Notes: generated from the sequence alone by a model not told the origin. Positions 4,996 to 26,776 are shown, numbered from the stretch's first letter. The stretch is 32,350 nucleotides of DNA from an uncultured Burkholderiales bacterium (GCA_964502185.1 CAZCVW010000004.1:1-32350); one strand, 5' to 3'. Numbers and translations: made by a program.

Positions 4996-6639
4996 CTAGT
5001 AGATCGCGGGCGCCCGGAAGGCGCCGAACACGTCGATGAGGGCGGCGATGATCTCGCCCTGGGTCGCCCCGTTTCCGATGGCATCCAACACTGCCGGCAT
5101 CGTGTTCTCGTTGCGCTCCGCCACCGCCCGTACCTGGTCCAGGCTTCGCTGCACCGGGACGTCGTCGCGGGACGACCGGAAGGCGCTGAGGCGGCGCAGC
5201 TGCTCCTCCTCGGAGGCGTCGTCGACTCGGAAGGTCTCGAGCTCGTACTCCTCGTGCTCTATCCGGTAGGCGTTGACTCCGACCACGACCCGCTGACCGG
5301 AGAGGATCTCCTTCTGCATGGCGTATGCGTTGTCGCTGATGATGCGCTCGAAGGTCCCGTCCTCGGCGCAGGTGATCGCTCCCCCGCGAGCGTCGATGTC
5401 GGCGATCCAGTCGTATGTCCGCCGTTCCACCTCGTCGGTGAGACTCTCGACGTAGTACGAGCCGGCCAAGGGATCCACTGTGTTGGTGACGCCCGTCTCG
5501 TGGGCGATGACCTGCTGCGTCCGGAGCGACAGCGTCTGAGCCTTCTCCGAAGGGATCGAGAAGGCTTCGTCGTAGCATGACACGGCCATCGACTGCGTCC
5601 CGCCGACGGCCGCCGCCAGCGCCTGGACGGCGCCCCGGATCAGGTTGACCTCCGGTTGCTGGTACGTCATGGTGCTGCCGCCGGTTTGGACGTGCATCCG
5701 GAACCGACACGAATGCGGGTGCTTGGCCCCGAAGCGGTCGCGCAGGAGATGGGCCCAGATCCGCCGCGCCGCCCGGAATTTGGCGACCTCCTCGAAGAAG
5801 TCGCTCTGGACGTTCATGATGAACGAGAAGCGAGGGGCGAAGTCGTCGATGTCAAGGCCGCGCCCGAGCAGCTCCTCGATGTAGGAGATGGCCTGGGAGA
5901 AGGTGAAGGCCAACTCCTGGTCGGCCGTCGTGGCCGCCTCTCGGATGTTGTATCCGTTGATGTTGATTCCGTTCCATCGGGGCATGTTCCGGGCGCAGAA
6001 CTCCAGGAGGTCACCGGCGAGCTTGACCGACGGGCGGGGGGGGAAGATGTACGTCTTCTGGGCGTAGAAGTCCTTGAGCGGGTCGTTCTGCGTGGTGCCC
6101 GCCAGCTGGCGGATGTCGTACCCACGGCTCTTCGCCATGACGACGTACATCCCGAAGATCACGACGGCGGGGTGGTTGATCGTCTGGGAGACACTGATCT
6201 CGTCCAGGGCGATGCCCTCAAAGAGGTCGTGCATGTCGGCCAGCGTGTCGATCGCCACGCCGCTACGACCGACCTCCCCCTTCGAACGCGGGTCGTCCGA
6301 GTCCAGCCCGATGAGGGTCGGCACGTCGAAGTCGTTCGAGATGCCCGTCTGCCCATGGGCGATCACGTACTTGTTGCGGGCGTTCGTCTCGGGCGCCGTC
6401 CCCAGGCCGACCACCTGTCGCTGCGTCCACACCCGCCCGCGGTACATCGTCTCGTACGGCCCCCGGGTGAACGGGAAGAACCCCGCCCGCCCGACCCGCT
6501 CCTCGAAGCTCCAGTCGCTCAGGTCCTCGGGTTCGTACGCCTGCTTGACGGGGATGCCGGATCCGGTGACGAACCGTCGCTCCTCACCCGAGGCGGGTTC
6601 GGGTTGCTGCGGGTCGAGTTTGTCGCGCAGGTCCGTCAT
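4996..6639 (-). CDS. Coenzyme-B12 acyl-CoA mutase large (substrate-binding) subunit, divergent member of the methylmalonyl-/isobutyryl-/hydroxyisobutyryl-CoA mutase family (operon 1)
   Basis: Family hallmarks are present: FPFTRGPYETMYRGRVWTQRQ, GQTGISNDFDVPTLIGLDSDDP, NINGYNIREA, DFFEEVAKFRAARRIW, TQSMAVSCYDEAFSIPSE, LRTQQVIAHETGV. An AGGAAAGGAAA RBS lies before ATG 6639. Confidence 0.9.
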   Translation of the reverse strand: MTDLRDKLDPQQPEPASGEERRFVTGSGIPVKQAYEPEDLSDWSFEERVGRAGFFPFTRGPYETMYRGRVWTQRQVVGLGTAPETNARNKYVIAHGQTGISNDFDVPTLIGLDSDDPRSKGEVGRSGVAIDTLADMHDLFEGIALDEISVSQTINHPAVVIFGMYVVMAKSRGYDIRQLAGTTQNDPLKDFYAQKTYIFPPRPSVKLAGDLLEFCARNMPRWNGININGYNIREAATTADQELAFTFSQAISYIEELLGRGLDIDDFAPRFSFIMNVQSDFFEEVAKFRAARRIWAHLLRDRFGAKHPHSCRFRMHVQTGGSTMTYQQPEVNLIRGAVQALAAAVGGTQSMAVSCYDEAFSIPSEKAQTLSLRTQQVIAHETGVTNTVDPLAGSYYVESLTDEVERRTYDWIADIDARGGAITCAEDGTFERIISDNAYAMQKEILSGQRVVVGVNAYRIEHEEYELETFRVDDASEEEQLRRLSAFRSSRDDVPVQRSLDQVRAVAERNENTMPAVLDAIGNGATQGEIIAALIDVFGAFRAPAIY

Positions 6640-7812: not shown

Positions 7813-8058
7813 CCGGGCGCCATCAGCAATCCAACCGTCTTGGCAATCGGACCGGGCCGGCGAACGCCCGGCTATGACCAGCAGGCGTCGGCTGGAGCCA
7901 GCCCGCCCGTGGCGACACGCCTAGAAGGCGTCAGCTGACGCGGCATCGCTGCGCAGCGACTCCCTGGAAACGCCGAGCGCGGCGCGTGTGGTGCCGAGCG
8001 CTGGGCAACGTGGCTGAAGTGAGTGGGCCATAGTTTTGATAGCTGGCCTACTTGACAT

Positions 8059-8071
8059 TTGGCCAGACCAA
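8059..8071. promoter_or_regulatory. Putative FadR/GntR-type operator, copy 2 (TTGGCCAGACCAA)
   Basis: Same dyad as the other copies, 115 nt upstream of the membrane-protein start. A consensus -35-like TTGACA (8052-8057) abuts it, so the site would sit in a promoter spacer. Confidence 0.5.
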
Positions 8072-8185
8072 ACTAATGATGCCCTCGTATTCATAGCGCC
8101 CCGATTGCGCTCAGCCCGGATTGTGGCGGGCGCGTTCCCGGCCCGGTACCAAAAGGGGGAAGGCCGGGGATCCCGGCCAAACACG

Positions 8186-9325
8186 ATGACTCAGATGGGC
8201 GAAGACGTACACGTTGAAGCGGAGGTTGGTGCCACAGCGGCGGCGGTCCCACGGTGGGGAGCGGCGACGCCACTCGTGATCACGGCTGGCATCTGGATCG
8301 TCTCGCTTCTCACATGGTGGCTACTTGCCGATCCGGACTGGAGTCCCTTTGGTGCGTCGCAGGCGGCCGTCGGCGCCCTACTGTTCTGGACCATCCTGGC
8401 GTTCATCTTCACCGGCTTCACGTTCGGCAACTGGCCGTTCAGCCGGCTTTCGCAGCCACTCGCCGGCGTCGCCCAGGTCGCGTTCGACGTGGCCTTTGCC
8501 TTCTTCGCCGTGTGGCTCTTCACGTTCGTCCTGGGAGCCTGGGACCCGACGTTCTCCCACGCCGCCCCGGGTGGTGCGGGCTTCACGGCGGCCGCCTTCG
8601 TCGTCCTCATCGGCTTCTACGCATACGCCCTCGTGGCCGCCAGTTGGGGCGGCTACCCGTTTGAAAACGTCGGCCAACCAACCGCCGGGGTGGCGCAGTT
8701 TTTCCTGGCTGCATTCATCACGCTCCTCGGCACCGTCGTCCTGATCTACCCCAACTTCAGCGCAGCGCTGGCGGCCGACGCACCCCTCGCGCTCCCGACC
8801 GCCACCGGGTGGGTCTACGAGTCGATCGTCGTCCTACTCCTCGCGGCCATGCTGTGGGACAACTGGCCTTGGGCGATGATCAAGAACCGGCATTTGCGCG
8901 CCTTGGGCGCAGTGGCGGTGAGCCTCGCCGGAGGCTACCTCCTGTTCGTCATCTTCAAGGCCATCGTGAAAGCCGTTGTACCTGAGAGCATCGAGGCCAT
9001 GGACACGTTCGCGGTGGACCTGGAGGCGGCTCAGCTCGGCGTGTGCTTCTCGCTTTGGAGCCTTACCTGGGGCCTGGTGTGGGGAGCGCCGCCCCAGTCG
9101 CTGGGCACCGTCGGAAACCGCTTGGCGCGTACCGCGATCGTGACCGTCTTGTCGGTGGCGACGTACGCGATCTTCATGAACTTCTTTGCCACCAAGGTGC
9201 TTCACTTCGCCGCGCTCGAGGACAGCTACGGCGGGTCCCCGCTCGTCTGGATGGACTGGGTGATCCTCGTGGTGCTCTGGTACGCGGTCGCCTTCGGAGG
9301 CTTCCTGTCGACCCGCCGAGCGTAG
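8186..9325 (+). CDS. Polytopic integral membrane protein of unknown family (candidate substrate transporter)
   Basis: About 10 hydrophobic segments are visible. There is a repeated motif: NWPFSRLSQPLAGVAQVAF, GYPFENVGQPTAGVAQFFL, and a weaker NWPWAMIKNRHLRALGAVAV. I chose the start at ATG 8186 (MTQMGEDV...), and the exact start is uncertain. Confidence 0.6.
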   Translation: MTQMGEDVHVEAEVGATAAAVPRWGAATPLVITAGIWIVSLLTWWLLADPDWSPFGASQAAVGALLFWTILAFIFTGFTFGNWPFSRLSQPLAGVAQVAFDVAFAFFAVWLFTFVLGAWDPTFSHAAPGGAGFTAAAFVVLIGFYAYALVAASWGGYPFENVGQPTAGVAQFFLAAFITLLGTVVLIYPNFSAALAADAPLALPTATGWVYESIVVLLLAAMLWDNWPWAMIKNRHLRALGAVAVSLAGGYLLFVIFKAIVKAVVPESIEAMDTFAVDLEAAQLGVCFSLWSLTWGLVWGAPPQSLGTVGNRLARTAIVTVLSVATYAIFMNFFATKVLHFAALEDSYGGSPLVWMDWVILVVLWYAVAFGGFLSTRRA

Positions 9326-9431: not shown

Positions 9432-10859
9432 TTGGCCTTCACGTCGCCTGAGGAGTGGCCTCCGCCGCCGAGCGGTGCCACGTCTCCTTCGGCCGAGAGC
9501 CCCTATTGGAACCGGACGGTCGAGACGATGGATCCGGCCGATCGTGAGCGACTCATCGTCTGCAAGCTCAAGGCTCAGCTGGACTACTGCTACGAGAACT
9601 CCGGGTTCTACCGGGAGAAATGGGACGCCGTCGGCGTCGATCCGGGCAAGGTCTCGTCGCTCGACGACCTTCGGCGGTTTCCGCTGCTGCGGAAGCAGGA
9701 GCTCCGGACTGAACAGGCGGAACACCCGCCGTTCGGTCGTTACCTCTGTGTCCCCCGGGAAGAGGTACTGCGGATCCACGGAACGTCGGGTACCACCGGG
9801 CGGCCCACCGCCTTCGGTGTGAGCCGGGGCGACTGGCACCGCATTGCCGCCGCTCATGCTCGGATCATGTGGGCCGCCGGCATCCGCCCGTCCGACACCA
9901 TCTTTCTCGGATCGTTCTTCGGCTTGTACTGGGGCGGTTGGGGAGCGCTCATCGGCGGCGAGCGGCTGGGCGCCACCTGCTTCCCCTTCGGCGCCGGAGT
10001 CCCCGGCCAGACCCAGCAGGCGGTGGAGTGGTTGGCCCAGATGCGGCCCACCGCCTTCTACGGCACGCCCTCCTACGCCCTCCGGATCGCCGAGGTGGCC
10101 CGGGAGGCGGGATTTGACCCGGTCGACTTTGGCATCCGCGTCCTGTTCTTCTCAGGGGAACCGGGCGCCGGCATTCCGTCCACCAAGCGATTGATCGAAA
10201 GAAGCTTCGGAGGAGCCTGCATCGACATGGGGTCCATGGCGGAGATGTCACCGTGGATGACCAACGCCGAGTGCAGCGAGCGCAGCGGGATGCACTTGTG
10301 GGACGACATCGTCTACACGGAATTGCTCGATCCCGTGACGGAGGAGCCGGTGAGTCCAGGTGAGGTGGGTGTGCCGGTCTACACGCACCTGGAACGCGAG
10401 TCCCAGCCGATGATCCGGCTGTGGTCGGGTGATCTTTCCAGGTACACGAGCGAACCGTGCGGTTGCGGGCGGACGTACCGGCGGCTTCCCGACGGTCTTT
10501 TCGGACGGGCCGATGACATGCTTGTGATCAGAGGCGAAAACGTCTATCCGGCTGCCATCGAGGAGGCGATCCGGGCGGCCGGCTGCGAGGGTGAATTCCG
10601 GGTGGAGGTCGTCCGGGAGCACGCGATGGACGAGCTGACGGTACGGGCGGAAGCGGTGGCCGGGTGCTCCGAAAGCGATCTCCAACAGGCCGTCCTCAGC
10701 CAGCTCAAGAAGAAGCTCGGTCTCAGGGCCGCGGTGGAGATCGTGCGCGCCGGATCGCTGGAGCGAACAGAGTTCAAGTCTCGGCGTATTTCTGATCGCC
10801 GTGACCTGAGCCAGGAGCTCAAGACCCTGCAGGAAGCCTCGAATGGGACGTCGGCTTGA
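9432..10859 (+). CDS. Phenylacetate-CoA ligase-like (PaaK family) AMP-forming acid-CoA ligase
   Basis: It is collinear with PaaK as I remember it: ETMDPADRERL..., FPLLRKQELR, RIHGTSGTTGRPTAF, GWGALIGGERLGATCFPFG, FYGTPSYALRIAE, FFSGEP, GRADDMLVIRGENVYPAAIEE. The TTG start at 9432 has GAGGGGG 4 nt upstream. Confidence 0.85.
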   Translation: MAFTSPEEWPPPPSGATSPSAESPYWNRTVETMDPADRERLIVCKLKAQLDYCYENSGFYREKWDAVGVDPGKVSSLDDLRRFPLLRKQELRTEQAEHPPFGRYLCVPREEVLRIHGTSGTTGRPTAFGVSRGDWHRIAAAHARIMWAAGIRPSDTIFLGSFFGLYWGGWGALIGGERLGATCFPFGAGVPGQTQQAVEWLAQMRPTAFYGTPSYALRIAEVAREAGFDPVDFGIRVLFFSGEPGAGIPSTKRLIERSFGGACIDMGSMAEMSPWMTNAECSERSGMHLWDDIVYTELLDPVTEEPVSPGEVGVPVYTHLERESQPMIRLWSGDLSRYTSEPCGCGRTYRRLPDGLFGRADDMLVIRGENVYPAAIEEAIRAAGCEGEFRVEVVREHAMDELTVRAEAVAGCSESDLQQAVLSQLKKKLGLRAAVEIVRAGSLERTEFKSRRISDRRDLSQELKTLQEASNGTSA

Positions 10860-10892
10860 GCTTTCCACCGCGCCTGAGCTTTCCACCGCGCC
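10857..10892. repeat. Perfect 18-bp tandem duplication TGAGCTTTCCACCGCGCC x2, beginning with the CoA-ligase stop codon
   Basis: By direct reading, 10857-10874 equals 10875-10892. Each unit begins with an in-frame TGA. Confidence 0.9.
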
Positions 10893-10902
10893 ATGGCGGT
10901 GG
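10883..10902 (+). terminator. Candidate stem-loop after the CoA-ligase gene (CCACCGC-GCCATG-GCGGTGG)
   Basis: It has a 7-bp GC-rich stem and a 6-nt loop, formed partly from the second repeat unit. There is no U-tract, so it is weak as an intrinsic terminator. Confidence 0.3.
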
Positions 10903-11162
10903 GCCGGCCTGTTGGGCGATCGAGGAGGTGACCACATAGAGCATCAGGCGTCAGTGGTTCAACGGCGGGAGTTATAACCTAGAGCGGGAAGATCCAGGAG
11001 TACATTCTGCTGGTGCAGGGCGGCACCACGACATTTCTCGCGCCGGGCGCACGATCGCTTCGCCGTGTGCAGGATCTGCCATGAGACGAATTGCGGATCG
11101 CCGGAACGCCGGGCGGATCCGCGGCGTGGAAGTAGACGATTTTCTGAGGAGGAATGTCTGCG

Positions 11163-12410
11163 ATGAACAAACTCGAACTGATGCCCCTTGAAGAGACTGT
11201 CAAGTGGGCAAAGCACAATTCTTGGTATGTGGCTGACCTGCTGGCGAGGAGGGGCACGGAGGGCGAAAACCCCCTGATCCCGAGGGCCGAGTACGAGATG
11301 CTGTCCTTCCAGACCACCTTCCTGCAGCACCCATGGCTGTACCTCTGGCTAGGGGAGAAGGTGGGGATGGAGGGAATAAGAGCGACCTGCAGCTCAGGCC
11401 ACCGAGAGTTCGGGATCAAGACCATTACCCCGTGCAACATACAGTGGGGCTGTGGGATCGCCTTGTTCGGCAGGTTGTTTCTCATCGATGGCGGCCTTAT
11501 CGGGCCCAACGACTACATCGATAACCTCAGGATCATCTACAGCTTCTGGAGGACCGTGTTCGAGGGCTATATGCGGGAAGGGAAGCCGGCGGTCATGGAC
11601 GTGGGGTACGCCCTGCAAGTGCTCGACCAGGACGTGGTGGAGGACCTGAGTCTGCAGGTGGAACCTCTAGACGACCCGGAGCTGCGGGCCACAGTGGGCC
11701 AGTTCAACTCCTTAATCCAGCTCATGGGCTTCCTGGACCACTATGACTGCCGGCTGGGCCTGGGCGACACCGGCCCCTATGAGGTGGGCGACAGGCTGAT
11801 CCTGGTCAGGGACTGCTTCGTGAACGAGAAGTCGTTCCCATGGACCTTCGTGGTCGGGGACCTGCCGTTCTCCTACAGCCTGGTGTTGACCTACGACAAG
11901 AAGAAGATGATGCGAGACCGCAAGAGCGGCAAGATGAAGATGTTCTCCATATACAACACCGGCACCCTGTTTTGCGACCCCCCTGATTACGAGGATCAGG
12001 CGTTGCTGGAGGTCGCGGTGTACATGAGAGACGAGGATTATCCCAATGGCAAGACAACCAGGATACCGCTGAGCGAGCTGCAGACCCACATCCAGAAACT
12101 GGAGGCGGCCGTGGAGCGGATGTACATGTACCTGGCCATGAAGCCCAAGTTCGACAAGATACTGGAGGGTAATTGGGTCTACGTGGCCGCTTCGCTTCCC
12201 TATGTCCGCGCCCATGACCTCGAGGCGGAGGCGGCCGCGATGGGGTTCTGGGATATGGACCTTAGGAGCATGGAATACTTGCTCAAGGGCTATACCAAGG
12301 CTGGGGAAGTCCAACGGAACGCGACGGCTGGTCTGGGGGCTCCTCCTCCGCAGATGCCCGGGTTCCGCTGCAGGGGGACCAAGGACGGTAGGTACGAGAT
12401 AGTACGTTAA
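11163..12410 (+). CDS. Hypothetical protein, no family recognised (low-GC island gene 1)
   Basis: This is a long ORF in a compositionally distinct stretch. It uses AGG/AGA/ATA codons (CTG GCG AGG AGG; GGA ATA AGA) that are rare in the flanks. GAGGAGGA at 11146-11153 abuts the first ATG (11154) but is well spaced for the second ATG at 11163. Confidence 0.6.
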   Translation: MNKLELMPLEETVKWAKHNSWYVADLLARRGTEGENPLIPRAEYEMLSFQTTFLQHPWLYLWLGEKVGMEGIRATCSSGHREFGIKTITPCNIQWGCGIALFGRLFLIDGGLIGPNDYIDNLRIIYSFWRTVFEGYMREGKPAVMDVGYALQVLDQDVVEDLSLQVEPLDDPELRATVGQFNSLIQLMGFLDHYDCRLGLGDTGPYEVGDRLILVRDCFVNEKSFPWTFVVGDLPFSYSLVLTYDKKKMMRDRKSGKMKMFSIYNTGTLFCDPPDYEDQALLEVAVYMRDEDYPNGKTTRIPLSELQTHIQKLEAAVERMYMYLAMKPKFDKILEGNWVYVAASLPYVRAHDLEAEAAAMGFWDMDLRSMEYLLKGYTKAGEVQRNATAGLGAPPPQMPGFRCRGTKDGRYEIVR

Positions 12411-12450
12411 TGCAAAAGGCCAGCAAGTGGCTAAACGGAAAGGGGCGACA

Positions 12451-12522
12451 ATGGCTGAGCCAGGAATCAAGGAAGAAGGCGAGACAATGGCTGGGCTAAG
12501 AGTCAAGGAAGAAAGCGAGAAG
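12451..12522 (+). repeat. Imperfect 36-bp tandem repeat (2 units, 29/36 identical) at the 5' end of island gene 2
   Basis: Hand alignment of atggctgagccaggaatcaaggaagaaggcgagaca against atggctgggctaagagtcaaggaagaaagcgagaag. Each unit begins with ATG. Confidence 0.8.
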
Positions 12523-12945
12523 AGGTTTCAGTGGTCCCACGAGGAGTGGGAGGTTGACCTGAACCTCAAGACGGCCGATGAGTTTGAGGCGTGGCTCAAC
12601 AAGGAGACCAAGTACTTCATCAGGGCCAACGCCGGCTTCTATGGCCAGTGCGTCATCGTGTGCATAGAGTCTAAGGATGATGAGTTCCTGTGCTACGTGG
12701 ACTACTACAAGGGTAAGTTCCCGCCCTGGTACACCGCCGAGGAGCTGGCGGTGCTGGACATAGACAAGCTTCGCATGGAGCCCGCCGAGATTAAGTGGGA
12801 TAACTGGGAGTGGACGACCTTAAGGAAAGATGACTTTCCGCTGCGTCTGAAGGAGGTCATTTTCCTGTACCCGCCCCAGCAGCCGACCATACCGTGGCTC
12901 TTCCTGTCGCCAGAGGAGAGCGGCTTGGCGACGATGGAGATATAG
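12451..12945 (+). CDS. Hypothetical acidic Trp-rich protein, no family recognised (low-GC island gene 2)
   Basis: The ORF has AAAGGGG 5 nt before ATG 12451. GTG 12427 and ATG 12487 are alternative starts. The N-terminus is an imperfect 36-nt tandem repeat (MAEPGIKEEGET / MAGLRVKEESEK). Confidence 0.55.
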   Translation: MAEPGIKEEGETMAGLRVKEESEKRFQWSHEEWEVDLNLKTADEFEAWLNKETKYFIRANAGFYGQCVIVCIESKDDEFLCYVDYYKGKFPPWYTAEELAVLDIDKLRMEPAEIKWDNWEWTTLRKDDFPLRLKEVIFLYPPQQPTIPWLFLSPEESGLATMEI

Positions 12946-12966
12946 GAAGGAAGAGGCGGAGCACAA

Positions 12967-13446
12967 ATGGATAACGACATCGCAGGGTACAGGTATATCG
13001 GCCAGGGCTACAGTGTGGTGCCCGTGGGGAAGCACGAGGGTATTGCCATGAACGTCACGACGCCACAGGAAATGATAAAGCTGATGTCCAACCCGCAGAA
13101 AATCAAGGAGACCGTGGTGATCACGCCCGGCGGCACCACCACCTTTGTGGCCCCGCTTCTTTACAAGAAGCCGGCCGGCATCGTGACCTATGCCGGGACG
13201 CCGGAGTCTCATTTGGGAATCGTAGGGCGGAACTTTGGTATCGCCATCGTCATGACGCTCAAGCTGGAAGGGATGGACTCCATCCCCGATGGCACACCCG
13301 TGCTGCTCGACTGTGAGGGCAAGCTAGGGCGCGTTTACGTAAAGGCAGAGGCGGGCGCCGAGTCGCAGCAGTCAGCGGATGGGTCGGTCCAGTCGCAGCA
13401 GTCAGCGGATGGGTCGGTCCTGGGGGATGGGTCGGTCCTCGGGTAG
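12967..13446 (+). CDS. Free-standing PEP-utilising-enzyme mobile (phosphohistidine swivel) domain protein
   Basis: GQGYSVVPVGKHEGIAMNV...ETVVITPGGTTTFVAPLLYKKPAGIVTYAGTPESHLGIVGRNFGIAIVMT...DGTPVLLDCEGKLGRVYV follows the swivel-domain pattern (G..G.a.G......ilV...t.P......a.GivT..Gg.tSH.aivaR..giP.v). The conserved His sits in TPESH. There is no ATP-grasp or acceptor domain. The C-terminal tail is repetitive. Confidence 0.8.
   Translation: MDNDIAGYRYIGQGYSVVPVGKHEGIAMNVTTPQEMIKLMSNPQKIKETVVITPGGTTTFVAPLLYKKPAGIVTYAGTPESHLGIVGRNFGIAIVMTLKLEGMDSIPDGTPVLLDCEGKLGRVYVKAEAGAESQQSADGSVQSQQSADGSVLGDGSVLG
13361..13438 (+). repeat. 30-bp perfect tandem repeat x2 plus a partial third unit, in frame at the 3' end of the swivel-domain gene
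   Basis: 13361-13390 equals 13391-13420 (agtcgcagcagtcagcggatgggtcggtcc). ggatgggtcggtcc recurs at 13425-13438. The repeat encodes SQQSADGSV SQQSADGSV LGDGSVLG. Confidence 0.9.
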
Positions 13447-13538
13447 GAATTGCAATGGGGGAAAAGGCTAATGCTGTCTAGTGCGTTGGGGTGATGTGGG
13501 GCGACCTAGCGCGCCGGACAACGTGTTGCGGGGTGACT

Positions 13539-14105
13539 ATGCTGGATGAACATGCATTTTTGGTGTTGAACGCGCTATACCTCAAAAAGATGGCTTCAGT
13601 CGGAGACTTGGCTGAAATTTCGGGCCTGCCTGCCGACCAAGTACGGGCAATGGTGAGCGGCTTCGTGGAGCGAGGTTGGTTGCTGGATATGGGCGGCGAG
13701 CTTCTCATCCAGCCCGAGGGAATGGCGCAGGTGCAAGGCTACTATCGCGAAACCTATTCGGACCTTTCGCAAAGCGAAGAGATGCCGCGATGGCATGCGC
13801 GGTTCGAGCCCATCAACAGTCAATTCATCAAGCTTGTCACCGACTGGCAGCAAACCGGAGGCGATCCCAGAGTCCAGGACCGCGTAATTGCGACGGTCGA
13901 GCGGCTCGTCAAGTTAATCGGCGAGATTACGCAGCTGGTGCCACGGTACGCCGGCTACATTCGCCGGTTCGAACGAAGTGTGACCACAGTCGACCAAGGG
14001 AATCCTGACTTCGTTTGCACTCCGACCGTCGATTCTTTGCACAACATTTGGTTCGAGTTCCACGAGGACATCCTCATGATTCTAGGGAAGGAGCGGACGG
14101 AGTGA
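13539..14105 (+). CDS. Winged-helix-like N-terminal domain protein of unknown family, paralogue A (low-GC copy); partner of the PPDK-like gene
   Basis: It is a paralogue of 14382..15002, sharing RWHARFE/RWMARFE and the near-identical end DSLHNIWFEFHEDILMILGKERTE / DSVHNIWFELHEDILVILGKERLE. The N-terminus LVLNALYLKKMASVGDLAEISGLPADQVRAMVSGFVERGWL looks like a wHTH. I chose the start at ATG 13539 by alignment with the paralogue. Its stop is overlapped by the GTG of the truncated PPDK fragment (GTGA). Confidence 0.65.
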   Translation: MLDEHAFLVLNALYLKKMASVGDLAEISGLPADQVRAMVSGFVERGWLLDMGGELLIQPEGMAQVQGYYRETYSDLSQSEEMPRWHARFEPINSQFIKLVTDWQQTGGDPRVQDRVIATVERLVKLIGEITQLVPRYAGYIRRFERSVTTVDQGNPDFVCTPTVDSLHNIWFEFHEDILMILGKERTE

Positions 14106-14284
14106 CTCCTCGTTCGGCCGGGAGTGTCTCGGCCGACCTGACGTTCGTGCACCGTTTCGAGGACGCTGACCCCTCCCAGCCGGGACTTTTCGGCGGGAAC
14201 GGAGCGGGGCTCGCTCGGATGACCGCCGCCGGCCTGCCCGTGCCCCGGGGGTTTGTCATCACCACCGAAGCGTGTCGTGCCTAT
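14022..14284 (+). repeat. Imperfect direct repeat, copy 1 (about 260 bp; pairs with 14919..15181)
   Basis: Hand alignment of the 3' end of paralogue A plus the following ~180 nt against the 3' end of paralogue B plus the 5' end of the PPDK-like gene. There is one 3-nt indel, and by eye about four-fifths of positions are identical. Confidence 0.8.
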
Positions 14285-14356
14285 AGGGGCGGTTGGCGGA
14301 GCCGTCGAAAGACTGCCCCGCCTCCCGCCCCCGCGCCGGCACCGTCTGCAGGGTAA
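14102..14356 (+). pseudogene. Truncated N-terminal fragment of a pyruvate,phosphate-dikinase-like gene (duplication relic)
   Basis: VTPRSAGSVSADLTFVHRFEDADPSQPGLFGGNGAGLARMTAAGLPVPRGFVITTEACRAY matches residues 1-62 of the intact 846-aa protein. It then diverges into RGGWRSRRKTAPPPAPAPAPSAG*. It begins with the same GTGA overlap with the preceding gene as the intact copy does. Confidence 0.7.
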
Positions 14357-14381
14357 CGACCGAGACGCGGGGGGGAATGAC

Positions 14382-15002
14382 ATGACCGGGGCCGACATTG
14401 AGGACACCAGGTACGCCGTCCTGAGCACGATCGTGTTCAAGAAAATGGCGACGGCGGGGGCGGTGGCCAACGCTACGGCCGTCGACCTCGATACGGTGCG
14501 GGCGGTCCTCGACGACCTGGAGTCGTCCGGAGCGGTGTTCCGGGCCGAGGACCAGGCCTTCCCCACCGAGATCGCCGAGAAGCAGGTCCGGGAGTACGCC
14601 GACAGCCGCTACGGGGCCGTGCGGAGCGACCCGGCCGTCGAGCGCTGGATGGCCCGCTTCGAGACACAGAACCGGCATTTCCTGGAGACTGTCTCGGCCT
14701 GGCAGCAGATCGACGCCGGCGGCAAGAAGGTGGCGAACGACCACACCGATCCGGAGTACGACGCCCATGTCCTCGCCCGCGTCGACGCCACGCTGGCCCG
14801 GATGGGCAAGCTCATCGACGAGCTGGCGACCAAGGTGCCCCGGGTCGCCCGCTACGGGGAGCGGCTGCAGGAGGCCTTCGACAAGGTCGACGCCGGCGAC
14901 CCCCGCTACCTCTCCGATCCGACGATCGACTCGGTGCACAACATCTGGTTCGAGCTTCACGAGGACATCCTCGTCATCCTGGGAAAGGAGCGGCTCGAGT
15001 GA
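14382..15002 (+). CDS. Winged-helix-like N-terminal domain protein of unknown family, paralogue B (high-GC copy); translationally coupled to the PPDK-like gene
   Basis: ATG 14382 follows a GGGGGGA RBS. It is a paralogue of 13539..14105. Its TGA stop (15000-15002) overlaps GTG 14999 of the next gene. Confidence 0.7.
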   Translation: MTGADIEDTRYAVLSTIVFKKMATAGAVANATAVDLDTVRAVLDDLESSGAVFRAEDQAFPTEIAEKQVREYADSRYGAVRSDPAVERWMARFETQNRHFLETVSAWQQIDAGGKKVANDHTDPEYDAHVLARVDATLARMGKLIDELATKVPRVARYGERLQEAFDKVDAGDPRYLSDPTIDSVHNIWFELHEDILVILGKERLE

Positions 15003-15181
15003 CTTCCCGCTCGGCCGGGACTGGCTCGGCCGGCCCGACGCTCGTCTACCGCTTCGAGGACGCCGACGCCTCCCAGCCGGGGCTCTTCGGGGGCAAGGGA
15101 GCGGGGCTCGCCCGGATGACCGCCGCCGGCCTACCGGTACCGCCGGGATTCGTCATCACCACCGAAGCGTGTCGCGCCTTC
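14919..15181 (+). repeat. Imperfect direct repeat, copy 2 (pairs with 14022..14284)
   Basis: See copy 1. This copy spans the paralogue B / PPDK-like gene junction. Confidence 0.8.
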
Positions 15182-17539
15182 ATGGCCAACGGGGCGGTCC
15201 CCGAGGGCTTGATCGAAGACGTCCACCGGCATCTGGCCGAGCTGGAGCAGACGACCGGGCGGCGCTTCGGGGGCGGACCGACGCCGCTCCTCGTGTCGGT
15301 ACGGTCCGGGGCCCCCATCTCGATGCCGGGGATGATGGACACGATCCTGAACCTCGGACTCAGCCAGGAGGCGGCCGTCGCCCTGGCCGCCGCCACTGGT
15401 GACGTCGCCTTCATGGCCGACGTCTACAGCCGGTTCTACCGCATGTTCGCCGACATCGTGCTGGGGGGCGGTGGCGACGCCGTCACCGAGGCCGCCGGCC
15501 CGATCCGGGCGGCGATTACGCCCAGCTCCGATGCCACCGCCGTGTTCTCCGAACTCCAGGCGGCGTGCCGGCAGGCGACGCTCGACGAGGTCGGCGACGC
15601 CGTCCCCGACGACCCGTACGAGCAGCTCGAGCGGGCCATCGGCGCCGTGTTCGAGTCATGGAACTCCCGCCGGGCCGTCACCTACCGTCGGTTCCACAAG
15701 ATCGCCGACGACCTGGGCACCGCCGTGGTCATCCAGACGATGGTGTTCGGCAACCTCGGACAGACATCGGGCACCGGGGTGGCGTTCACCCGTGACCCTC
15801 TCACCGGGGAACCGACCCTCTACGGCGAGTACCTCGAAGGGGCCCAGGGCGAGGACGTGGTGGCGGGCACGTCGACGCCCGCCACCCTGGCGCAGGCGGC
15901 CGAGCGGATGCCGGAGGTGTTCGCCGAGTTCACCCGGGTGGCCCAAGAGTTGGAGAGCGTCTACCGCGACGTGGTCGACATCGAGTTCACCGTGGAGCGG
16001 GGGAAGCTCTACCTGCTGCAGGTCCGCAGCGCCAAGCGCACGGCCGAGGCGGCCATCCGGATCGCCGCCGATTTCCTGCGTGACCGCAAGGTTGCGCCGG
16101 CGGAGGCGCTGGCCAAGGTCTCGACGGAGCAGATCCGCCAGGCCGAGCGGCCCAGCTTCGAGACGGCGGCGGTGGCCGCCGCCCGACAGGCCGGGGCGCT
16201 GGCGTCCGGCATCGGGGCGTCGCCGGGACAAGTGAGCGGGATCGTCGTGGTCGACCCCGACCGGGCGGTCGAGGTGGCCGCCACCGGCGAGTCGGTGATC
16301 CTGGCCCGGCCGACCACGAGCCCGCTCGACCTCCACGGAATGATCGCCGCTACCGGGATCGTAACCGCCCTCGGCGGCGCCACCAGCCACGCCGCGGTGG
16401 TGGCCAGGGCGCTGGGAAAGCCCTGCGTGGTCGGCTGCGCCGACGTCGAGATCGATCTCGACGGGCGTGGCTTCCGGGTAGGTGAACGTTCATTCGCGGA
16501 GGGCGATCCCGTCTCCATCGACGGCGCCAGCGGCGAAATCTTCGCCGGCCGGCTGCCGACGACGCAAGTGGAGCTGTCGGGGGCGGACCTGGCGGAAGTG
16601 CTGGGCGTGGCCGACGACGCCGCCCGTTGCCGCCTCTTCGGGCGGGCGACGACGCCCGAGCAGGTGAAGAGCGTGCTCGACCGGGGCGTGCAGGCCATCG
16701 CCACCCGTCTCGGGGACGTGCTCGCCACCACCGGGCACCTCGAGGAGCTCATCGCTCTCCTCGTCGCCCACGAAGTCGACGGGACCAAACTGGACGGCTT
16801 CGAGGAGATCATCGCCGACGTCCTCACGCCCGTCCTCCTGGCGGCCGGCGAGGCCGACATCGTCGTCCGGGCCGTCGACCTCTCTTCCGACGAGGCGATG
16901 GAGCTTCTCGACGCGCCGGCCCTCCTGGCGCGACACCCCCGCTTCCACCTGCCCCTAGGAGTGCCGGAGTTCCTGACCATCCAGGTCGCCGGGTTAGCCC
17001 TGGCCGCCAAGCGCAGCGGCCACCCCCGGCCGCCCCAGCTGAGCGTCCGCCACGTGACCGATCCCAACGAGGCGCAGGAGATCCAGCGGATCGCCCGGGA
17101 AGAGCTGCTCCGGCGGGGGCTCGGTCCGGTGCTCGTGGGACCGACGCTCACGAGCCCCCGGGCCGCTCAACTCGCCCCCGAGATCGCCCGGTACAGCGAC
17201 CTCATCTGGCTCGAGGTCCGGGGCCTCCAGGCCAAGCTCTACGGGTACCCGGCGAGCCTGTGGTTCACCGGTGACCCGCTCGACGAGTACGTCCGGAAAC
17301 GGATGCTCTCGAGCGACCCGCGGGCCACGATGGACGAGTCGATGCGCGTGCTCCTCGCCTCGGTGGCGACGGCGCGGATCTCGAACCCGGGCTGCCGAGT
17401 AGGCGTGCGGCTGAGCGGCCCGGTGTCAGAGGAGCTGGCCGCCGGCTTCTACCGACTCGGGTTCCGCACCTTCGCCGTCGACGCCGACGAAGTGCGGACG
17501 GCGCGGCTGGCCTTCGGCAAGGCGGCGCTTTCGGAGTGA
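14999..17539 (+). CDS. Pyruvate,phosphate dikinase-like protein: intact ATP-grasp and phosphohistidine domains, degenerate PEP/pyruvate-binding domain
   Basis: N-terminal PPDK signatures are present ([91 protein letters not shown]). The swivel domain is present ([22 protein letters not shown]). The C-terminal third is collinear with the PPDK TIM barrel but lacks its catalytic motifs (see findings). Confidence 0.85.
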   Translation: [846 protein letters not shown]

Positions 17540-17576: not shown

Positions 17577-18353
17577 ATGGCGAACGAGCTGAAGGAATGG
17601 CGGAGGGTCCTCGAGGGGCTTCCCGGGGACGAGGTCTACCAAGTGACCGAACCCCTCGACGGGGTGGAGTTCCTCCATCTCATGGAACAGCGCCGGATGG
17701 CGTTCTGGAATTCGAAACCGGACAACGAGAAGAGTCACTACCAGGGCTACAGCGCCATCTCCCGGGAGCAGCTGATCGACTCCCTGCGGCGGCAGACGCA
17801 CGCCGAGCTCGCCGCCGTCCACGCTCCGAACCTGAGCTTCGACGTCTGCCCCTGGCAGGACATCAAGATGGACTACGCCCGCCAGATGAACGAGGAGGGC
17901 CGGCACTTCAACCTGATCCGCGAACACCTGCTCGACCTTGGCGGCTCGTGGGACGACGACTACAGCCCCGACTTCCCCGAGTGGAACGCGTTGTTCAACC
18001 TCTTCCTCACCGTTGAGAACCGCTACTTCCTCGACCCCGCCAAAGAGGTCGTGGCCCGAGCCAGCGTGCTGAACTTCGGCATCGAGGGCTGGGACCACCT
18101 CTACGTGCAGCCGACATTCCTGAAATTCATTAGCGACGTCGACGAGACCCTGGCCCAGATCTACGAGGAAATCATCATGCCCGACGAGACGTTCCATTAC
18201 TCGATCGGGCAGCGGATCCTGCGGGACCACTGCGACCGCCCCGACCTCCAGCGTCTCGCCGTTTATTTCATCGACCGAGGGATGGTCGCCCACCACGCCG
18301 TGAACGTCGCCTTCCCCGCCTACCACAAGCGGCAGGGGTTCCATTCCGAATGA
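17577..18353 (+). CDS. Ferritin-like four-helix-bundle diiron-carboxylate protein (resembles the DUF455 family as I remember it)
   Basis: The E ... ExxH ... E ... ExxH ligand pattern is present: THAELAAVH, QMNEEGRHFNLIREHL, NFGIEGWDH, MPDETFHYSIG. An AAGGAG RBS lies before ATG 17577. GC content is visibly lower than in neighbouring genes. Confidence 0.65.
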   Translation: MANELKEWRRVLEGLPGDEVYQVTEPLDGVEFLHLMEQRRMAFWNSKPDNEKSHYQGYSAISREQLIDSLRRQTHAELAAVHAPNLSFDVCPWQDIKMDYARQMNEEGRHFNLIREHLLDLGGSWDDDYSPDFPEWNALFNLFLTVENRYFLDPAKEVVARASVLNFGIEGWDHLYVQPTFLKFISDVDETLAQIYEEIIMPDETFHYSIGQRILRDHCDRPDLQRLAVYFIDRGMVAHHAVNVAFPAYHKRQGFHSE

Positions 18354-18850
18354 TCTCTGAGAAGCTGACGGATTCGAACGCAGGGGTCGCCGGATCGGCG
18401 GCGACCCCTCCCGAGAAACTCCATCCGCCCACGACCGGTGAGGACGCGTCCACTTGGCCGGCGCTGCAGCCCGGAAGCGAGGTCGCCCCCGCCCCCGCGC
18501 CACCCGCCGAGGGTCACCGGCTCTTCGACACCCAACTCCACCGGTCGGACCTCATTGAACGGAAACCGGTCCGAGTCAAGCGCGAGGGCGAGGACATCGT
18601 CTGCGTTCTCGCGGGCGGGGCAGTCTACGCCTTCAGGAACCGCTGTCCGCACACCGGTTACCTCCTGCACGAGGGGCGGGTCCGCGGCTGCGTCGTCACC
18701 TGCATCTCGCACCTGGCGCAGTTCGACCTCCGAGACGGCCACGTGGTGGCGCTCCCGATGGAGGGCCGGAGCATCGAGACCGGTCCCCTGGCCGTCTACC
18801 GGGTCGTCGAGCGGGATGGCGCCGTCTTCGTCGAACTCCCCGAGGAGTAG
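18350..18850 (+). CDS. Rieske [2Fe-2S] domain protein (ferredoxin-type)
   Basis: The Rieske motif CxH...CxxH is present: NRCPHTGYLLHEGRVRGCVVTCISHLAQFD. ATG 18350 overlaps the previous stop (ATGA). The first ~55 residues are low-complexity, so the real start might be internal. Confidence 0.8.
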   Translation: MISEKLTDSNAGVAGSAATPPEKLHPPTTGEDASTWPALQPGSEVAPAPAPPAEGHRLFDTQLHRSDLIERKPVRVKREGEDIVCVLAGGAVYAFRNRCPHTGYLLHEGRVRGCVVTCISHLAQFDLRDGHVVALPMEGRSIETGPLAVYRVVERDGAVFVELPEE

Positions 18851-18853
18851 GCC

Positions 18854-20368
18854 GTGCCGAGCACGGCTCCTTGCCGGATGTTCCTTTTCCGTCACGGGCA
18901 GGCGCAGATGCCCGACGAGCGGGGACAGTTCTGGAATTACTCCGAGGCCGAGCTGGCGCCGGCGGGGCGACGCCGGGCCGCGGAGCTGGCGGCCGAGCTG
19001 GCGGCCGTCCCCCTCGACGCCGTGTTCACCTCGGACCTGCTCCGGGCCCGGCAGACGGCGGAGGCCATCGCCGCGCCTCAGGCCGCCCCGGTCTTCCCCG
19101 ACGCTCGACTGCGGGAGCTGAACATCGGGGACTTCGAGGGGATGACGCTCCCGCGGCTGCGCCAGGTCGACCGCCGCTTCCTGCCGTGGCTGGAGGTCTA
19201 CTTCGAAGGCCGCCACGCCGGTGTGGACTTCCACGTCCCGGCCGACCTGCCGTGGCCCGGAGGCGAGTCCGTGGCCGGGGCGCTCCGGCGGGTGCTCCCC
19301 GCCTTCCTCGAGATCGCCCGCGGGTGGCAGGGCCGCACGGTCGCCGTGTGCACCCACGCCTACGTGCTCCAGGCACTCCTGTGCCACATCGTCGGGGTTG
19401 ACGTCGCGCAGTACTGGAGCTTCGCCGGCCTGCCTGCCTCGCTCACGTTGGCGGAGGTCGGCTCCGACGGCCGCGGCGTCGTCCGGACCCTGAACGGCGA
19501 CCTCGAGCTCGCCACGCTCGTCGGCGGCCGGCTGCCGCTGCGTCGAGAAGAAGGGTGCCGTCCGGCAGGCGGCTCCACCGTGGCCGGCTCCGGCTCCGAC
19601 GACCTGCGCTCCACCTGCCGGGTCTTCCTCGTCCGTCACGGGCAGGCGATGGTCGTCGAGGAGGGGGGGCCGGTGTTCAGCCATCATCCCATTGGGTTGA
19701 CAGCCGACGGCCGCCGGCAGGCGCAGCGGCTCGCCTCGACGCTGGCGCCGGTCCGCCTCGACGCCGTGTACACCTCGGACCTCAACCGCGCCCGGGAGAC
19801 GGCCGAGCCGGTGGCCGCCGTGCAGGGACTGTCGCCCGTCGTCGTTCCGGAGCTGCGCGAGATCTCGCTCGGTGACTTCGAGGGAATGACGTTGGCCCGG
19901 GTGCACGCCGAACATGACCGCTTCATCCCTTGGTTGGAGGTGGCCTTCAACGAGCGGTTCCCCTCCGACGAGTTCCACCATCCCGCCGAACTCGTCTTCC
20001 CCGGCGGGGAGAGCGTGGTCTCGGTGTACGAGCGCGTCATCGAGCCGTTCCTGCGCATCGTCCGAGCTCACCTCGGGGGGACGATCGCCGTGGTGGGCCA
20101 CGGATGGGTGATTCAACCCCTGCTCTGCCATGTCCTCGGCGCGCCCACCACCAGCTACTTCCGCTTGCAGCTGCGCTATGCCGCTCCGGCGCTCGTGGAG
20201 GTCGACGCCGACGGGTTCGGGGTCCTCGAAGTCCTCAATGCGGGCACCCACGTGGGGGAGGCGACGGGACCAGGCGTGGCGGGCGCGGAGGCGGGGGCGG
20301 CGACGCAGGAGAGGTTACGGTCCGACGAGAGCCCGGCGCCGCCGAGGAGGAAGGGAGGCAGCAGATGA
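18854..20368 (+). CDS. Fusion of two histidine-phosphatase (phosphoglycerate-mutase-like) domains
   Basis: There are two full repeats, each with RHG (MFLFRHGQAQ / VFLVRHGQAM), SDLxRAxxTAE, GDFEGMTL, PGGES and a distal catalytic His (VCTHAY / VVGHGW). GTG 18854 lies 6 nt after a GAGGAG RBS. Confidence 0.8.
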   Translation: MPSTAPCRMFLFRHGQAQMPDERGQFWNYSEAELAPAGRRRAAELAAELAAVPLDAVFTSDLLRARQTAEAIAAPQAAPVFPDARLRELNIGDFEGMTLPRLRQVDRRFLPWLEVYFEGRHAGVDFHVPADLPWPGGESVAGALRRVLPAFLEIARGWQGRTVAVCTHAYVLQALLCHIVGVDVAQYWSFAGLPASLTLAEVGSDGRGVVRTLNGDLELATLVGGRLPLRREEGCRPAGGSTVAGSGSDDLRSTCRVFLVRHGQAMVVEEGGPVFSHHPIGLTADGRRQAQRLASTLAPVRLDAVYTSDLNRARETAEPVAAVQGLSPVVVPELREISLGDFEGMTLARVHAEHDRFIPWLEVAFNERFPSDEFHHPAELVFPGGESVVSVYERVIEPFLRIVRAHLGGTIAVVGHGWVIQPLLCHVLGAPTTSYFRLQLRYAAPALVEVDADGFGVLEVLNAGTHVGEATGPGVAGAEAGAATQERLRSDESPAPPRRKGGSR

Positions 20369-23630: not shown

Positions 23631-25336
<1,706 letters not shown>

Positions 25337-25340
<4 letters not shown>

Positions 25341-26311
25341 GGGCGTCCTTTCGATCTGCCGCTCAACTCGCGCTCGAGGAGCGCGTGCGCGGCCGTCCAT
25401 GGGTCCGTCGTGCGCCGGCACAGCGCCTCGACCGCGGTCTCGAAGGCCGATCCGGGAACGGGCCGGTCGAGGCGTTCGTGGACGAGGGCGGTGAGCAGCG
25501 TCTTCAGCCGGTGGCGTGCCATCAACCGCCGGCGCTCCTCCATGCTGCCGGAAGCGAGCAGCCAGTCGTAATGCTGGTCAAGGGCCTCGGCCAATTCGGT
25601 CACGCCCTGACCGCTCTCGGCGCACGTCGGAAGCACCGGAGCGAGCCATCCATTTACGGCGCTGAAGCCGAGCATGGACCTCAGCTCGGCCATCGTGCGG
25701 TCAGCACCCTCCCGATCGGCCTTGTTCACGACATGCACATCAGCTGTCTCCAGCAGGCCCGCCTTGAGCGCCTGGACATCGTCTCCCAGCCCGGGGGCGG
25801 AAACGACGACGACGCTATGAGCCGCCTGCGCGATCTCAACCTCGTCTTGGCCCACGCCCACCGTCTCCACCAAGACGACGTCCTTGCCGGCCGCGTCGAG
25901 CACGGCGACCGCGTCGGCGGTAGCACGGGCGATCCCGCCGAGCGCGCCACGAGTGGCCATGGAGCGAATGAACACCTCGGGGTCGTCCCACAGCGCCTGC
26001 ATCCGAATCCGGTCGCCGAGGACCGACCCGCCCGAGTAGGGACTGGACGGATCGACCGCCACGATCCCGAGGGTCAAGCCCCGCCGGCGGAGGTCAACGC
26101 CGAGGGCTGCGACCAGGGTGCTCTTGCCGGCGCCCGCCGGGCCGGTGACGCCGATCACCCGTGCCCGGCCGCCCGCTCGGTAGAGCTCGGCCAGGTCGTC
26201 CGCCCCGTCGAGCGCTCCCCGTTCGACGCGGGAGATCATCCGGGCGATGGATGCAACCTCCCCGGCGAGGACGCCTCGGGCCAGGTCGGTGTCCGCCCCG
26301 GTGGCCGTCAT
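25337..26311 (-). CDS. meaB: MeaB/ArgK-type G-protein chaperone for B12-dependent mutases
   Basis: It has a P-loop (GVTGPAGAGKSTLV), AVDPSSPYSGGSVLGDRIRM, ETVGVGQ and VNKAD. It is translationally coupled on both sides by ATGA overlaps. Confidence 0.9.
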
Positions 26312-26742: not shown

Positions 26743-26763
26743 GTTCGTTCTCCCTCTTGTCAA

Positions 26764-26776
26764 TTGGTCAGACCAA
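26764..26776. promoter_or_regulatory. Putative FadR/GntR-type operator, copy 4 (TTGGTCAGACCAA; perfect 6+1+6 dyad)
   Basis: This is a perfect palindrome around a central A, 21 nt upstream of the hcmB-like ATG. Confidence 0.6.

Follow-up and report, generated by a model that had tools for sequence, protein, structure and literature searches.

The DNA analysed here is a stretch of 32,350 nt, referred to throughout as the window, from a contig recorded for an uncultured Burkholderiales bacterium (GCA_964502185.1 CAZCVW010000004.1:1-32350). The element of interest is a block of four genes and a gene remnant that lies between an acyl-CoA ligase gene and a gene for a protein resembling pyruvate, phosphate dikinase (PPDK) (Table 1). 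The four genes encode a 418-amino-acid (aa) protein, a 172-aa protein, a stand-alone phosphohistidine swivel domain and a partner protein of ~200 aa. An initial annotation of the sequence had listed four co-directional genes here, and this arrangement stands; the sizes it gave for the first two products, 416 and 165 aa, were revised to 418 and 172 aa by open reading frame (ORF) calling. The block edges, at first placed at 10930 and 14105, were moved to ~10872 and 14293 by identity to a related locus in a Propionibacteriales metagenome-assembled genome (MAG; L009), which is 88-91% identical at the DNA level over 10872-14293 and 77-78% identical in the flanks. The same comparison with a second relative, L008, gave 87% identity in the block and 81% in the flanks. 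Taken together, the sequence comparisons and structure predictions described below indicate that the block fairly probably supplies the acceptor half of a small-molecule dikinase made up of several components, in which the adjacent PPDK-like protein would be the half that uses ATP.

Table 1 Features of the exchanged block and of its surroundings in the window
Feature	Coordinates	Strand	Basis
Exchanged block: four genes and truncated PPDK 5′ remnant	10872..14293	+	DNA identity to locus L009
Gene for 418-aa protein; proposed acceptor-substrate (catalytic) subunit	11154..12410	+	ORF
172-aa ORF (longest); accessory protein, short-form cassette only	12427..12945	+	ORF
159-aa stand-alone phosphohistidine swivel domain, His82	12967..13446	+	PF00391
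204-aa partner (~190-204 aa): winged-helix-like N-terminus and helical bundle	13491..14105	+	ORF
Truncated PPDK-like 5′ remnant, ~62 codons	14102..~14293	+	DNA and translation match to 846-aa gene
Second partner paralogue, 206 aa from ATG 14382; listed as 249-aa ORF from 14253	14382..15002	+	
846-aa PPDK-like enzyme: ATP-grasp, swivel (His464) and degenerate C-terminal TIM barrel (putative)	14999..17539	+	
PaaK/HCL-type acyl-CoA ligase	9432..10859	+	AMP-binding and AMP-binding_C_2
429-aa multi-pass membrane protein	8036..9325	+	without family
DUF455-like protein, Rieske ferredoxin-like protein, double histidine-phosphatase	17577..20368	+	Pfam
Lyase homologue, mutase-like set, second mutase-family large subunit	2728-4530, 4996-6639, 23631-27075	-	

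The 418-aa and 172-aa proteins had been described from the sequence alone as orphans without a family assignment, and searches of Pfam, NCBIfam, PHROG, PADLOC and PDB sequences returned no match for either. A family profile of the 418-aa protein also gave 0 matches against PDB sequences. The family has at least 128 homologues, and a profile search of 1.8 billion representatives recovered 337 clusters; the source names shown for its members are all "hypothetical protein". Its common, long form is ~470-477 aa, contains no Pfam domain and is ~32% identical to the 418-aa short form. The motifs RxTEG..IPRxxYE and HxDxRLGLGDxGPY, which are rich in Arg, Lys, His and Asp, are invariant in the family, and the invariant residues R33, E36, R44, K89, R107, H196, D198, R200 and D205 are taken to line a pocket. 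The 418-aa gene showed a dN of 0.03-0.08 and a dN/dS of ~0.05, indicating that the family is under very strong purifying selection. Foldseek searches of the PDB started from two AlphaFold models, one of the window protein (pLDDT 79, pTM 0.82) and one of P0179, a natural triple fusion (pLDDT 91.6, pTM 0.83), and found no neighbour apart from the swivel domain. The profile and fold searches of the 418-aa protein, proposed in the initial annotation as a check, revealed no phage or insertion sequence (IS) homology and no known family or fold.

The 159-aa protein contains PF00391 (phosphoenolpyruvate (PEP)-utiliser mobile domain) at E 4e-7 as its sole domain, and is a swivel domain alone, as first described. 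Alignment of its motif GTPESHLGIVGR with that of the PPDK-like protein, GGATSHAAVVAR, puts His82 opposite His464, and the swivel His is kept in all relatives and fusions examined. The C-terminal tail of the swivel protein (13361-13442) contains a perfect 30-nt repeat and 18-nt repeats encoding SQQSADGSV. The 204-aa partner is paralogous to the protein encoded upstream of the PPDK-like gene, again as first noted (37% identity, E 2e-42), and the stop codon of this second partner overlaps the GTG start of the PPDK-like gene. Homology among partners begins near residue 12-17, and the true start of the 204-aa partner may be the ATG near 13539. Both paralogues have weak MarR/IclR/TrmB helix-turn-helix (HTH) matches that fall under the Pfam thresholds, MarR_2 reaching 20.1 bits where 27 are required. 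The partner region of the fusion model is built of a helix-helix-hairpin unit that leads into long helices, an arrangement in keeping with the weak winged-helix matches. Conservation among partners is highest not in the HTH but in the C-terminal helical region HNIWFExHEDIL..LGKER.

The 172-aa ORF is likely to encode a protein of 152 aa starting at ATG 12487, judged by the family length of ~152 aa. A 36-nt tandem duplication (12440-12511) makes the N-terminal extension and provides two alternative starts for the ORF. Only close homologues of this protein were found (66-88% identity, mostly 152-165 aa), always beside a 418-aa-type gene. The possibility that it corresponds to an N- or C-terminal extension of the long form was rejected, BLAST showing no similarity, and tblastn detected no 172-aa-like sequence in any of the long-form loci.

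The 846-aa PPDK-like protein contains PPDK_N (E 7e-46) and PEP-utilizers (E 4e-22) domains, PF02896 not being detected in it at E<=0.1. The ATP-grasp region and swivel His motif GGxTSHAA of PPDK are present, and residues 16-568 align to C. symbiosum PPDK with an E of 1e-142. Residues 674-845 align only weakly to the same enzyme (E 0.025), with the replacements E745->T, N768->R, D769->G and C831->R. Glu745, Asn768, Asp769 and Cys831 of C. symbiosum PPDK are catalytic residues of the PEP/pyruvate site, so that the replacements affect both the Mg2+/substrate residues and the catalytic Cys. Against TIGR01828 the protein scored 636 bits where the cut-off is 843, and the match spans positions 3-557 of the 865 in the model only. 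Assignment as a genuine PPDK (EC 2.7.9.1) was rejected on the sub-threshold TIGR01828 score, the missing PF02896 and the replaced acceptor residues. The TIM-barrel acceptor site therefore reads as degenerate, the individual residue replacements being held at moderate confidence. It had been suggested that the resident protein has lost its acceptor module; the weak alignment of residues 674-845 indicates instead that a degenerate remnant of the TIM barrel is kept.

Evidence that the block and the PPDK-like gene work together was obtained from gene order in other genomes. In the long-form loci the swivel gene is directly upstream of the 418-family gene in 64/64 cases, and the partner and PPDK-like genes are directly downstream in 62/64, the other 2 being cut contigs. 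For the short form, the order 418-172-swivel-partner is intact in all 14 untruncated loci. Natural fusions of swivel, 418-family domain and partner occur as single proteins of 772-794 aa (P0179, P0183 and P0187), and further fusion types join the swivel to the 418-family domain or the 418-family domain to the partner (P0180, P0209, P0220, P0289), indicating that the three proteins act as one unit. The near-universal co-occurrence and the natural fusions strongly support a functional tie between the block and the PPDK-like gene. A relation to the resident PPDK-like system had been proposed for the cassette, and the recurrent co-occurrence with PEP-utiliser genes across genomes that this called for was found.

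In a scan that used one genome per species, 213 relatives of the 418-aa protein were found. Copies at 88-95% amino-acid identity are present in Propionibacteriales and other Actinomycetota MAGs, Pseudonocardia sulfidoxydans and Solirubrobacterales, and also in Burkholderiales, Piscinibacter, Methylibium, Rubrivivax, Steroidobacter and a MAG labelled Deltaproteobacteria. Relative to L009, L008 and L001, dS was 0.14-0.66 inside the cassette and 0.35-1.6 in the flanking genes. Relative to the proteobacterial loci dS was saturated (1.2-1.8) while dN of the 418-aa gene remained 0.06-0.08, indicating that these transfers are old and that the constraint on the 418-aa protein is very strong. The position of the cassette varies: the ligase gene precedes it in the window and L008 and follows it in L001-L004, and the betaproteobacterial copies adjoin the hcmB-hcl-meaH-hcmA operon. 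In Methylibium petroleiphilum PM1 a copy is carried on a conjugative 599-kb megaplasmid and adjoins IS630, IS256 and IS3 elements, and three transposase genes precede the copy in Piscinibacter.

The right end of the block retains a scar. A PPDK remnant starts on the stop codon of the 204-aa gene (overlap GTGA) and translates to VTPRSAGSVSADLTFVHRFEDADPSQPGLFGGNGAGLARMTAAGLPVPRGFVITTEACRA, which corresponds to the start of the 846-aa protein. The remnant DNA is 84% identical to 14988-15179, the true start region of the 846-aa gene; beyond this the similarity stops, and next comes the second partner gene. L009 shares the remnant, cut off at the identical point, and the remnant marks the right junction of the exchanged block. 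In L008, L010 and L020 an intact PPDK-like gene comes straight after the 204-aa-type partner, and the second partner is absent at this position. On the strength of the remnant shared with L009 and of the direct partner-PPDK order in these three loci, the transferred unit is best described as 418-172-swivel-partner plus a PPDK stub, with the 204-aa gene as the canonical partner and the second partner (ATG 14382) and resident PPDK-like gene as a different version of the operon. The 204-aa gene is accordingly not an extra partner copy brought in by the cassette, as it had been described, but the usual PPDK-adjacent partner of L008, L010 and L020; it is the second partner that is unusual. The cross-phylum identity, low internal dS, shared PPDK remnant, variable position and plasmid copy beside IS elements support the block as a horizontally exchanged module, independently of its GC content, and the acquisition first proposed on compositional grounds can be kept. 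The exchange appears to be recent among actinobacteria and to have crossed between phyla at an earlier time.

Terminal repeats, inverted or direct, were searched for around the block and not found; the search gave only small tandem duplications. No Rfam family matched anywhere in the window, and hence there is no riboswitch upstream of the cassette. A promoter and terminator consensus scan of 10700-14500 returned nothing, such a scan being uninformative for a high-GC actinobacterium. Separately, an 18-nt tandem repeat at 10854-10889 spans the stop codon of the ligase gene and is not present in L008 or L009.

The base composition of the block was less extreme than first reported. In place of a GC content of 45-50% between flanks of ~75%, computation gave 58-59% for the block, 66% for the left flank and 70% for the right flank; 60-nt lines of the block had a mean of 58% (range 45-72%), and 12% of them were at or below 50%. 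The windowed profile is not flat, as had been predicted: at 0.585, where the window mean is 0.675 (sd 0.031; ~2.9 sd below), the block has a lower GC content than any other 3.4-kb stretch of the 32 kb. GC at third codon positions (GC3) was 0.82 in the two orphan genes, for the 418-aa and 172-aa proteins, and 0.81 in the upstream ligase gene, and most of the dip is held by the first and second positions (0.43-0.51 vs 0.55-0.65). In 14/14 short-form loci of other organisms the cassette is 3-11 GC points under its flanks while GC3 follows the host, reaching 0.90 in the Piscinibacter copy. As the dip sits in the first and second codon positions and recurs in every host while GC3 tracks the host, the low GC of the block is mostly an effect of the amino-acid composition of the encoded proteins. 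GC alone is insufficient to establish the lower-GC donor initially proposed and was rejected as proof of it. The rare codons AGG, AGA and ATA, reported earlier for the island as a whole, reach 4.8 and 5.2 per 100 codons in the two orphan genes and 0.1-0.8 in nearly all others; the excess is confined to these two genes and does not extend to the swivel and partner genes. It is shared by the closest relatives (L008, L009 and L020) and not by the copies in Methylibium, Piscinibacter and Pseudonocardia sulfidoxydans, a pattern that fits incomplete amelioration in the lineage of the window.

The genes surrounding the system were compared across genomes. Neighbours of the long form were counted in the 39 loci whose 10-kb flanks are complete: 37/39 encode a DUF7064/7065 protein together with a HAD hydrolase, 37/39 an aldehyde dehydrogenase, and 31-34 of the 39 microcompartment shell proteins (EutN, BMC-H, CsoS1D-like) and an MreB-like protein. 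The microcompartment locus also contains Ldh_1-like and Zn-dependent alcohol dehydrogenase (Zn-ADH) genes (L022-L088; e.g. L087, 14644-21434, and L088, 14669-21434) and matches the MIC1 type of Axen et al. Ornithinicoccus hortensis and Pseudonocardia hydrocarbonoxydans are among the hosts with such a microcompartment. Proteobacterial short-form loci have the same neighbours. Phosphatases (His_Phos_1, Y_phosphatase3, HAD) and dehydrogenases recur beside the system, a histidine phosphatase coming after the PPDK-like gene in L008, L010 and PM1. On the PM1 megaplasmid the cassette (L089, NC_008826.1 481668-484557) is followed by a PucR-like regulator and the hcm operon for the 2-hydroxyisobutyrate (2-HIBA) mutase, with genes for a thiamine pyrophosphate (TPP) enzyme and a gamma-carbonic anhydrase downstream of hcmA. 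The PM1 PPDK-like gene (45% identical) belongs to an operon (L090, 505222-510918) that also includes genes for Ldh_2, HIT, an NAD(P) oxidoreductase and a histidine phosphatase. Transcribed divergently from this operon are a Rieske oxygenase gene, paired with one for a PDR/VanB reductase, and a Y_phosphatase3 gene. We take the oxygenase and reductase to be the tert-butyl alcohol (TBA) hydroxylase MdpJ/MdpK (Mpe_B0555/B0554). The PM1 proteins, WP_011831855 to WP_011831858 for the cassette and WP_049820974 for the PPDK-like protein, have generic or uninformative names in their records: hypothetical protein, PEP-utilizing enzyme, MarR family regulator and pyruvate, phosphate dikinase. The third of these names, which would make the partner a stand-alone MarR-family regulator, is not supported by the sub-threshold MarR_2 score and the occurrence of partners fused to the 418-family domain. 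On plasmid pROB02 of R. opacus B4 (L091, NC_012521.1 122974-135244), a 793-aa triple fusion and a 571-aa two-domain PPDK are encoded in a cluster with P450, ferredoxin, reductase, aldehyde dehydrogenase, alcohol dehydrogenase and tyrosine-type phosphatase genes, the gene logic of which resembles that of the Cre pathway.

Within the window itself, the CoA ligase is 50% identical to the ligase of the hcmB-hcl-meaH-hcmA operon of Piscinibacter and Methylibium, and a PucR/GAF regulator is present. The 429-aa membrane protein has no Pfam or NCBIfam match; L001 and L008 encode homologues of it next to the cassette at 57-77% identity, as do proteobacterial loci, PM1 among them, at ~33%, and it may be a transporter for the substrate of the system. 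The DUF455-like (ferritin-like) and Rieske genes (17577-18850) overlap by 4 nt (18350-18353). This pair follows the PPDK-like gene in the window, L001-L004 and L018; in L064 it is found upstream of the operon in the opposite orientation, and L008 and L010 lack it. Its products may form an oxygenase acting on the phosphorylated intermediate. Downstream of the double histidine phosphatase gene are an Ldh_2 dehydrogenase and a GntR regulator. The window further encodes two methylmalonyl-CoA-mutase-family proteins with MeaB and a B12-binding subunit, comprising a 2-hydroxyisobutyryl-CoA-mutase-like set and a second large subunit, and a close 2-hydroxyisobutyryl-CoA lyase homologue (E 1e-164 to PDB 7PT1, an actinobacterial enzyme). 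As 2-hydroxyisobutyryl-CoA lyase interconverts its thioester with acetone and formyl-CoA (PMC7176365), the lyase homologue and mutase-family genes suggest that the setting is 2-hydroxyisobutyrate/acetone-type metabolism. Both known routes for 2-hydroxyisobutyryl-CoA may coexist in this one organism.

A model of the proposed dikinase can be outlined from these observations. The PPDK-like enzyme would bind ATP in its ATP-grasp domain and form a phosphohistidine on its own His464 and/or on His82 of the free swivel protein, while the ~200-aa partner would dock the acceptor module onto this enzyme, whose own TIM-barrel acceptor site is predicted to be defunct. The swivel would then bring the phosphoryl group to the 418-aa protein, for which a role as acceptor module is plausible, and which would bind a small neutral hydroxy or keto metabolite and catalyse its phosphorylation, assisted in the short form by the 152/172-aa protein. 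Neighbouring dehydrogenases and oxygenases would process the phosphorylated product and phosphatases would finally remove the phosphate, following the phosphorylate-oxidise-dephosphorylate logic of the Cre pathway. The recurrence of phosphatases and dehydrogenases suggests that the phosphate is a temporary handle, similar to that of CreHI/CreD and to the trapping or scavenging role proposed for HpeHI (PMC12167813). Two settings of the system, one with 2-hydroxyisobutyrate/TBA genes and the other with an aldehyde-oxidising microcompartment that includes Zn-ADH and lactate-dehydrogenase-like enzymes, suggest that the substrate may be a small C3/C4 alcohol, diol or ketol, in tert-butyl/2-hydroxyisobutyrate or C3 diol/ketol metabolism. 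We infer from the genes the direction of phosphotransfer, the roles of the 418-aa, 152/172-aa and partner proteins and the substrate class.

Several observations weigh against a multi-component dikinase. The fold of the 418-aa domain is unlike that of any known phosphotransferase or substrate-binding domain, so that its catalytic role is deduced only from conservation and fusion. The system has two swivel domains, one free and one in the PPDK-like protein, a pair that the model leaves without a division of labour, and we know of no described His-to-His transfer from swivel to swivel. The partner has a winged-helix-like domain and carries a MarR-family annotation in PM1. The PPDK-like gene is not adjacent to the cassette in four betaproteobacterial loci or in PM1, where it is ~22 kb away. 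In L009 (9309-13300) the cassette is intact and the ligase and PPDK-like genes beside it are reduced to short 5′ fragments, so that this locus is either decaying or reliant on genes elsewhere in the genome.

Another possibility is that the PPDK-like machinery phosphorylates the enol of acetone or a related ketone and that the 418-aa protein couples the phosphoenol to a C-C bond-forming or rearranging step, giving a second type of acetone-activating enzyme that feeds 2-hydroxyisobutyryl-CoA lyase and mutase. PPDK chemistry is itself the phosphorylation of an enolate, and the lyase homologue and mutase-like genes with MeaB in the window, like the TPP-enzyme and gamma-carbonic-anhydrase genes of PM1, would be in place for such a route. 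We consider it improbable, as carboxylase and biotin domains are not conserved alongside the system, the most consistent neighbours are phosphatases, which fit a removable phosphate handle better than a consumed phosphoenol, and the long-form loci are linked to the aldehyde-oxidising microcompartment rather than to lyase and mutase genes. The weak HTH matches of both partner paralogues, together with the winged-helix-compatible elements of the fusion model, the PM1 annotation of the partner and the PucR/GAF regulators that are common neighbours, raise the question of a regulatory phosphorelay, in which the partner would be a MarR-like DNA-binding regulator, the 418-aa protein a ligand sensor and the swivel His a switch driven by the PPDK-like kinase, controlling expression of the catabolic cluster. 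This appears very doubtful: the HTH matches are sub-threshold and partner conservation peaks in the C-terminal helical region, translation of the partner is coupled to that of the PPDK-like gene and partners occur fused to an enzyme-like domain, the loci already have dedicated regulators (PucR, GntR, IclR), and ~90% identity of the 418-aa protein across phyla would be unusual for a sensor. That the block is unrelated cargo, a selfish or phage/IS-derived insertion without a functional tie to the PPDK-like gene, can be given almost no credence, since its atypical base composition and rare-codon use and the IS elements adjoining the Piscinibacter and PM1 copies are set against a cassette without transposase or integrase, PHROG and PADLOC scans without a match, on which a phage, IS or defence origin was rejected, and the co-occurrence and gene fusions described above.

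A bolder version of the dikinase proposal, which we put forward as an unlikely but specific extension, is that the 418-aa family is a new class of phosphoryl-acceptor enzyme that, with the free swivel protein, an adaptor and the PPDK-derived ATP module, traps small, neutral, membrane-permeant C3/C4 alcohols, diols or ketones in the form of phosphate esters. Its long form would be the signature enzyme of MIC1, and its short form an unrecognised step from methyl tert-butyl ether (MTBE)/TBA to 2-hydroxyisobutyrate on the PM1 megaplasmid; tert-butyl alcohol, 2-methylpropane-1,2-diol and acetol/1,2-propanediol are candidates for the trapped substrate. If the dikinase proposal is true, swivel-histidine dikinases would reach beyond central metabolism, antibiotic inactivation and phenol-type substrates, and would include a four- or five-part architecture with an acceptor fold new to the PDB. 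The system would also be a candidate feeder of the MIC1 aldehyde dehydrogenase, MIC1 having no known signature enzyme, and would offer a candidate role for the unannotated genes between the TBA hydroxylase and the 2-hydroxyisobutyryl-CoA mutase operon of PM1. No description of these proteins was found in work on 2-HIBA, acetone, microcompartments, PM1 and dikinases (Kane 2007 and Hristova 2007 not covered), in line with the initial proposal that the system is undescribed in the available literature.

Compared with PPDK and PEP synthase, the 846-aa protein has the same ATP-grasp and swivel domains and the same catalytic His motif, but its PEP/pyruvate domain is barely recognisable and it is genetically locked to 3-4 extra proteins. 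It passes the cut-off of PRK05878 (549.9 bits vs 456), a truncated mycobacterial-type PPDK of 534 aa with a two-domain layout also seen in the 571-aa Rhodococcus PPDK; the window protein differs in having an extra, degenerate C-terminal domain of ~280 aa. To our knowledge, no function has been established for the PRK05878 family. Rifampin phosphotransferase (RPH) has a similar three-station logic, with an ATP-grasp domain, a swivel His and a separate small-molecule site. However, RPH combines these in one polypeptide, neither profile nor fold search relates its substrate domain to the 418-aa family, and the RPH entries 5fbt and 5hv1 align to the system by the swivel only (~119 columns in Foldseek), no rifampin (RIF)-binding domain being recognised. 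Closer parallels are offered by the two-component dikinases HpeHI, CreHI and PpsAB, which phosphorylate small molecules through a swivel His (PMC12167813), and by 3-hydroxypyridine conversion, which genetically requires a gene pair annotated as PPDK and PEP-utilising mobile subunit (bioRxiv 10.1101/2020.01.08.898148). HpeHI, CreHI and PpsAB(C), which act on hydroxyphenylethanone, 4-cresol and phenol, respectively, are, like the present system, split into separate polypeptides and placed in catabolic clusters with a phosphatase and oxidising enzymes, and they use an ATP-dependent phosphohistidine swivel carrier; the carrier, and the logic of phosphorylating a small neutral molecule, are proposed for the present system from its genes. 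The division of domains differs. In HpeHI, CreHI and PpsAB the H/A component combines an RIF-binding-like substrate domain with a C-terminal swivel, whereas here the swivel is a free protein, or N-terminal in the fusions, and the presumed substrate domain is similar to neither RPH nor HpeH. Their I/B component is an ATP-grasp domain alone (~40 kDa), whereas here it corresponds to an 846-aa protein with its own swivel and a putatively degenerate third domain, and the present system adds a ~200-aa partner and, in the short form, a ~150-aa protein.

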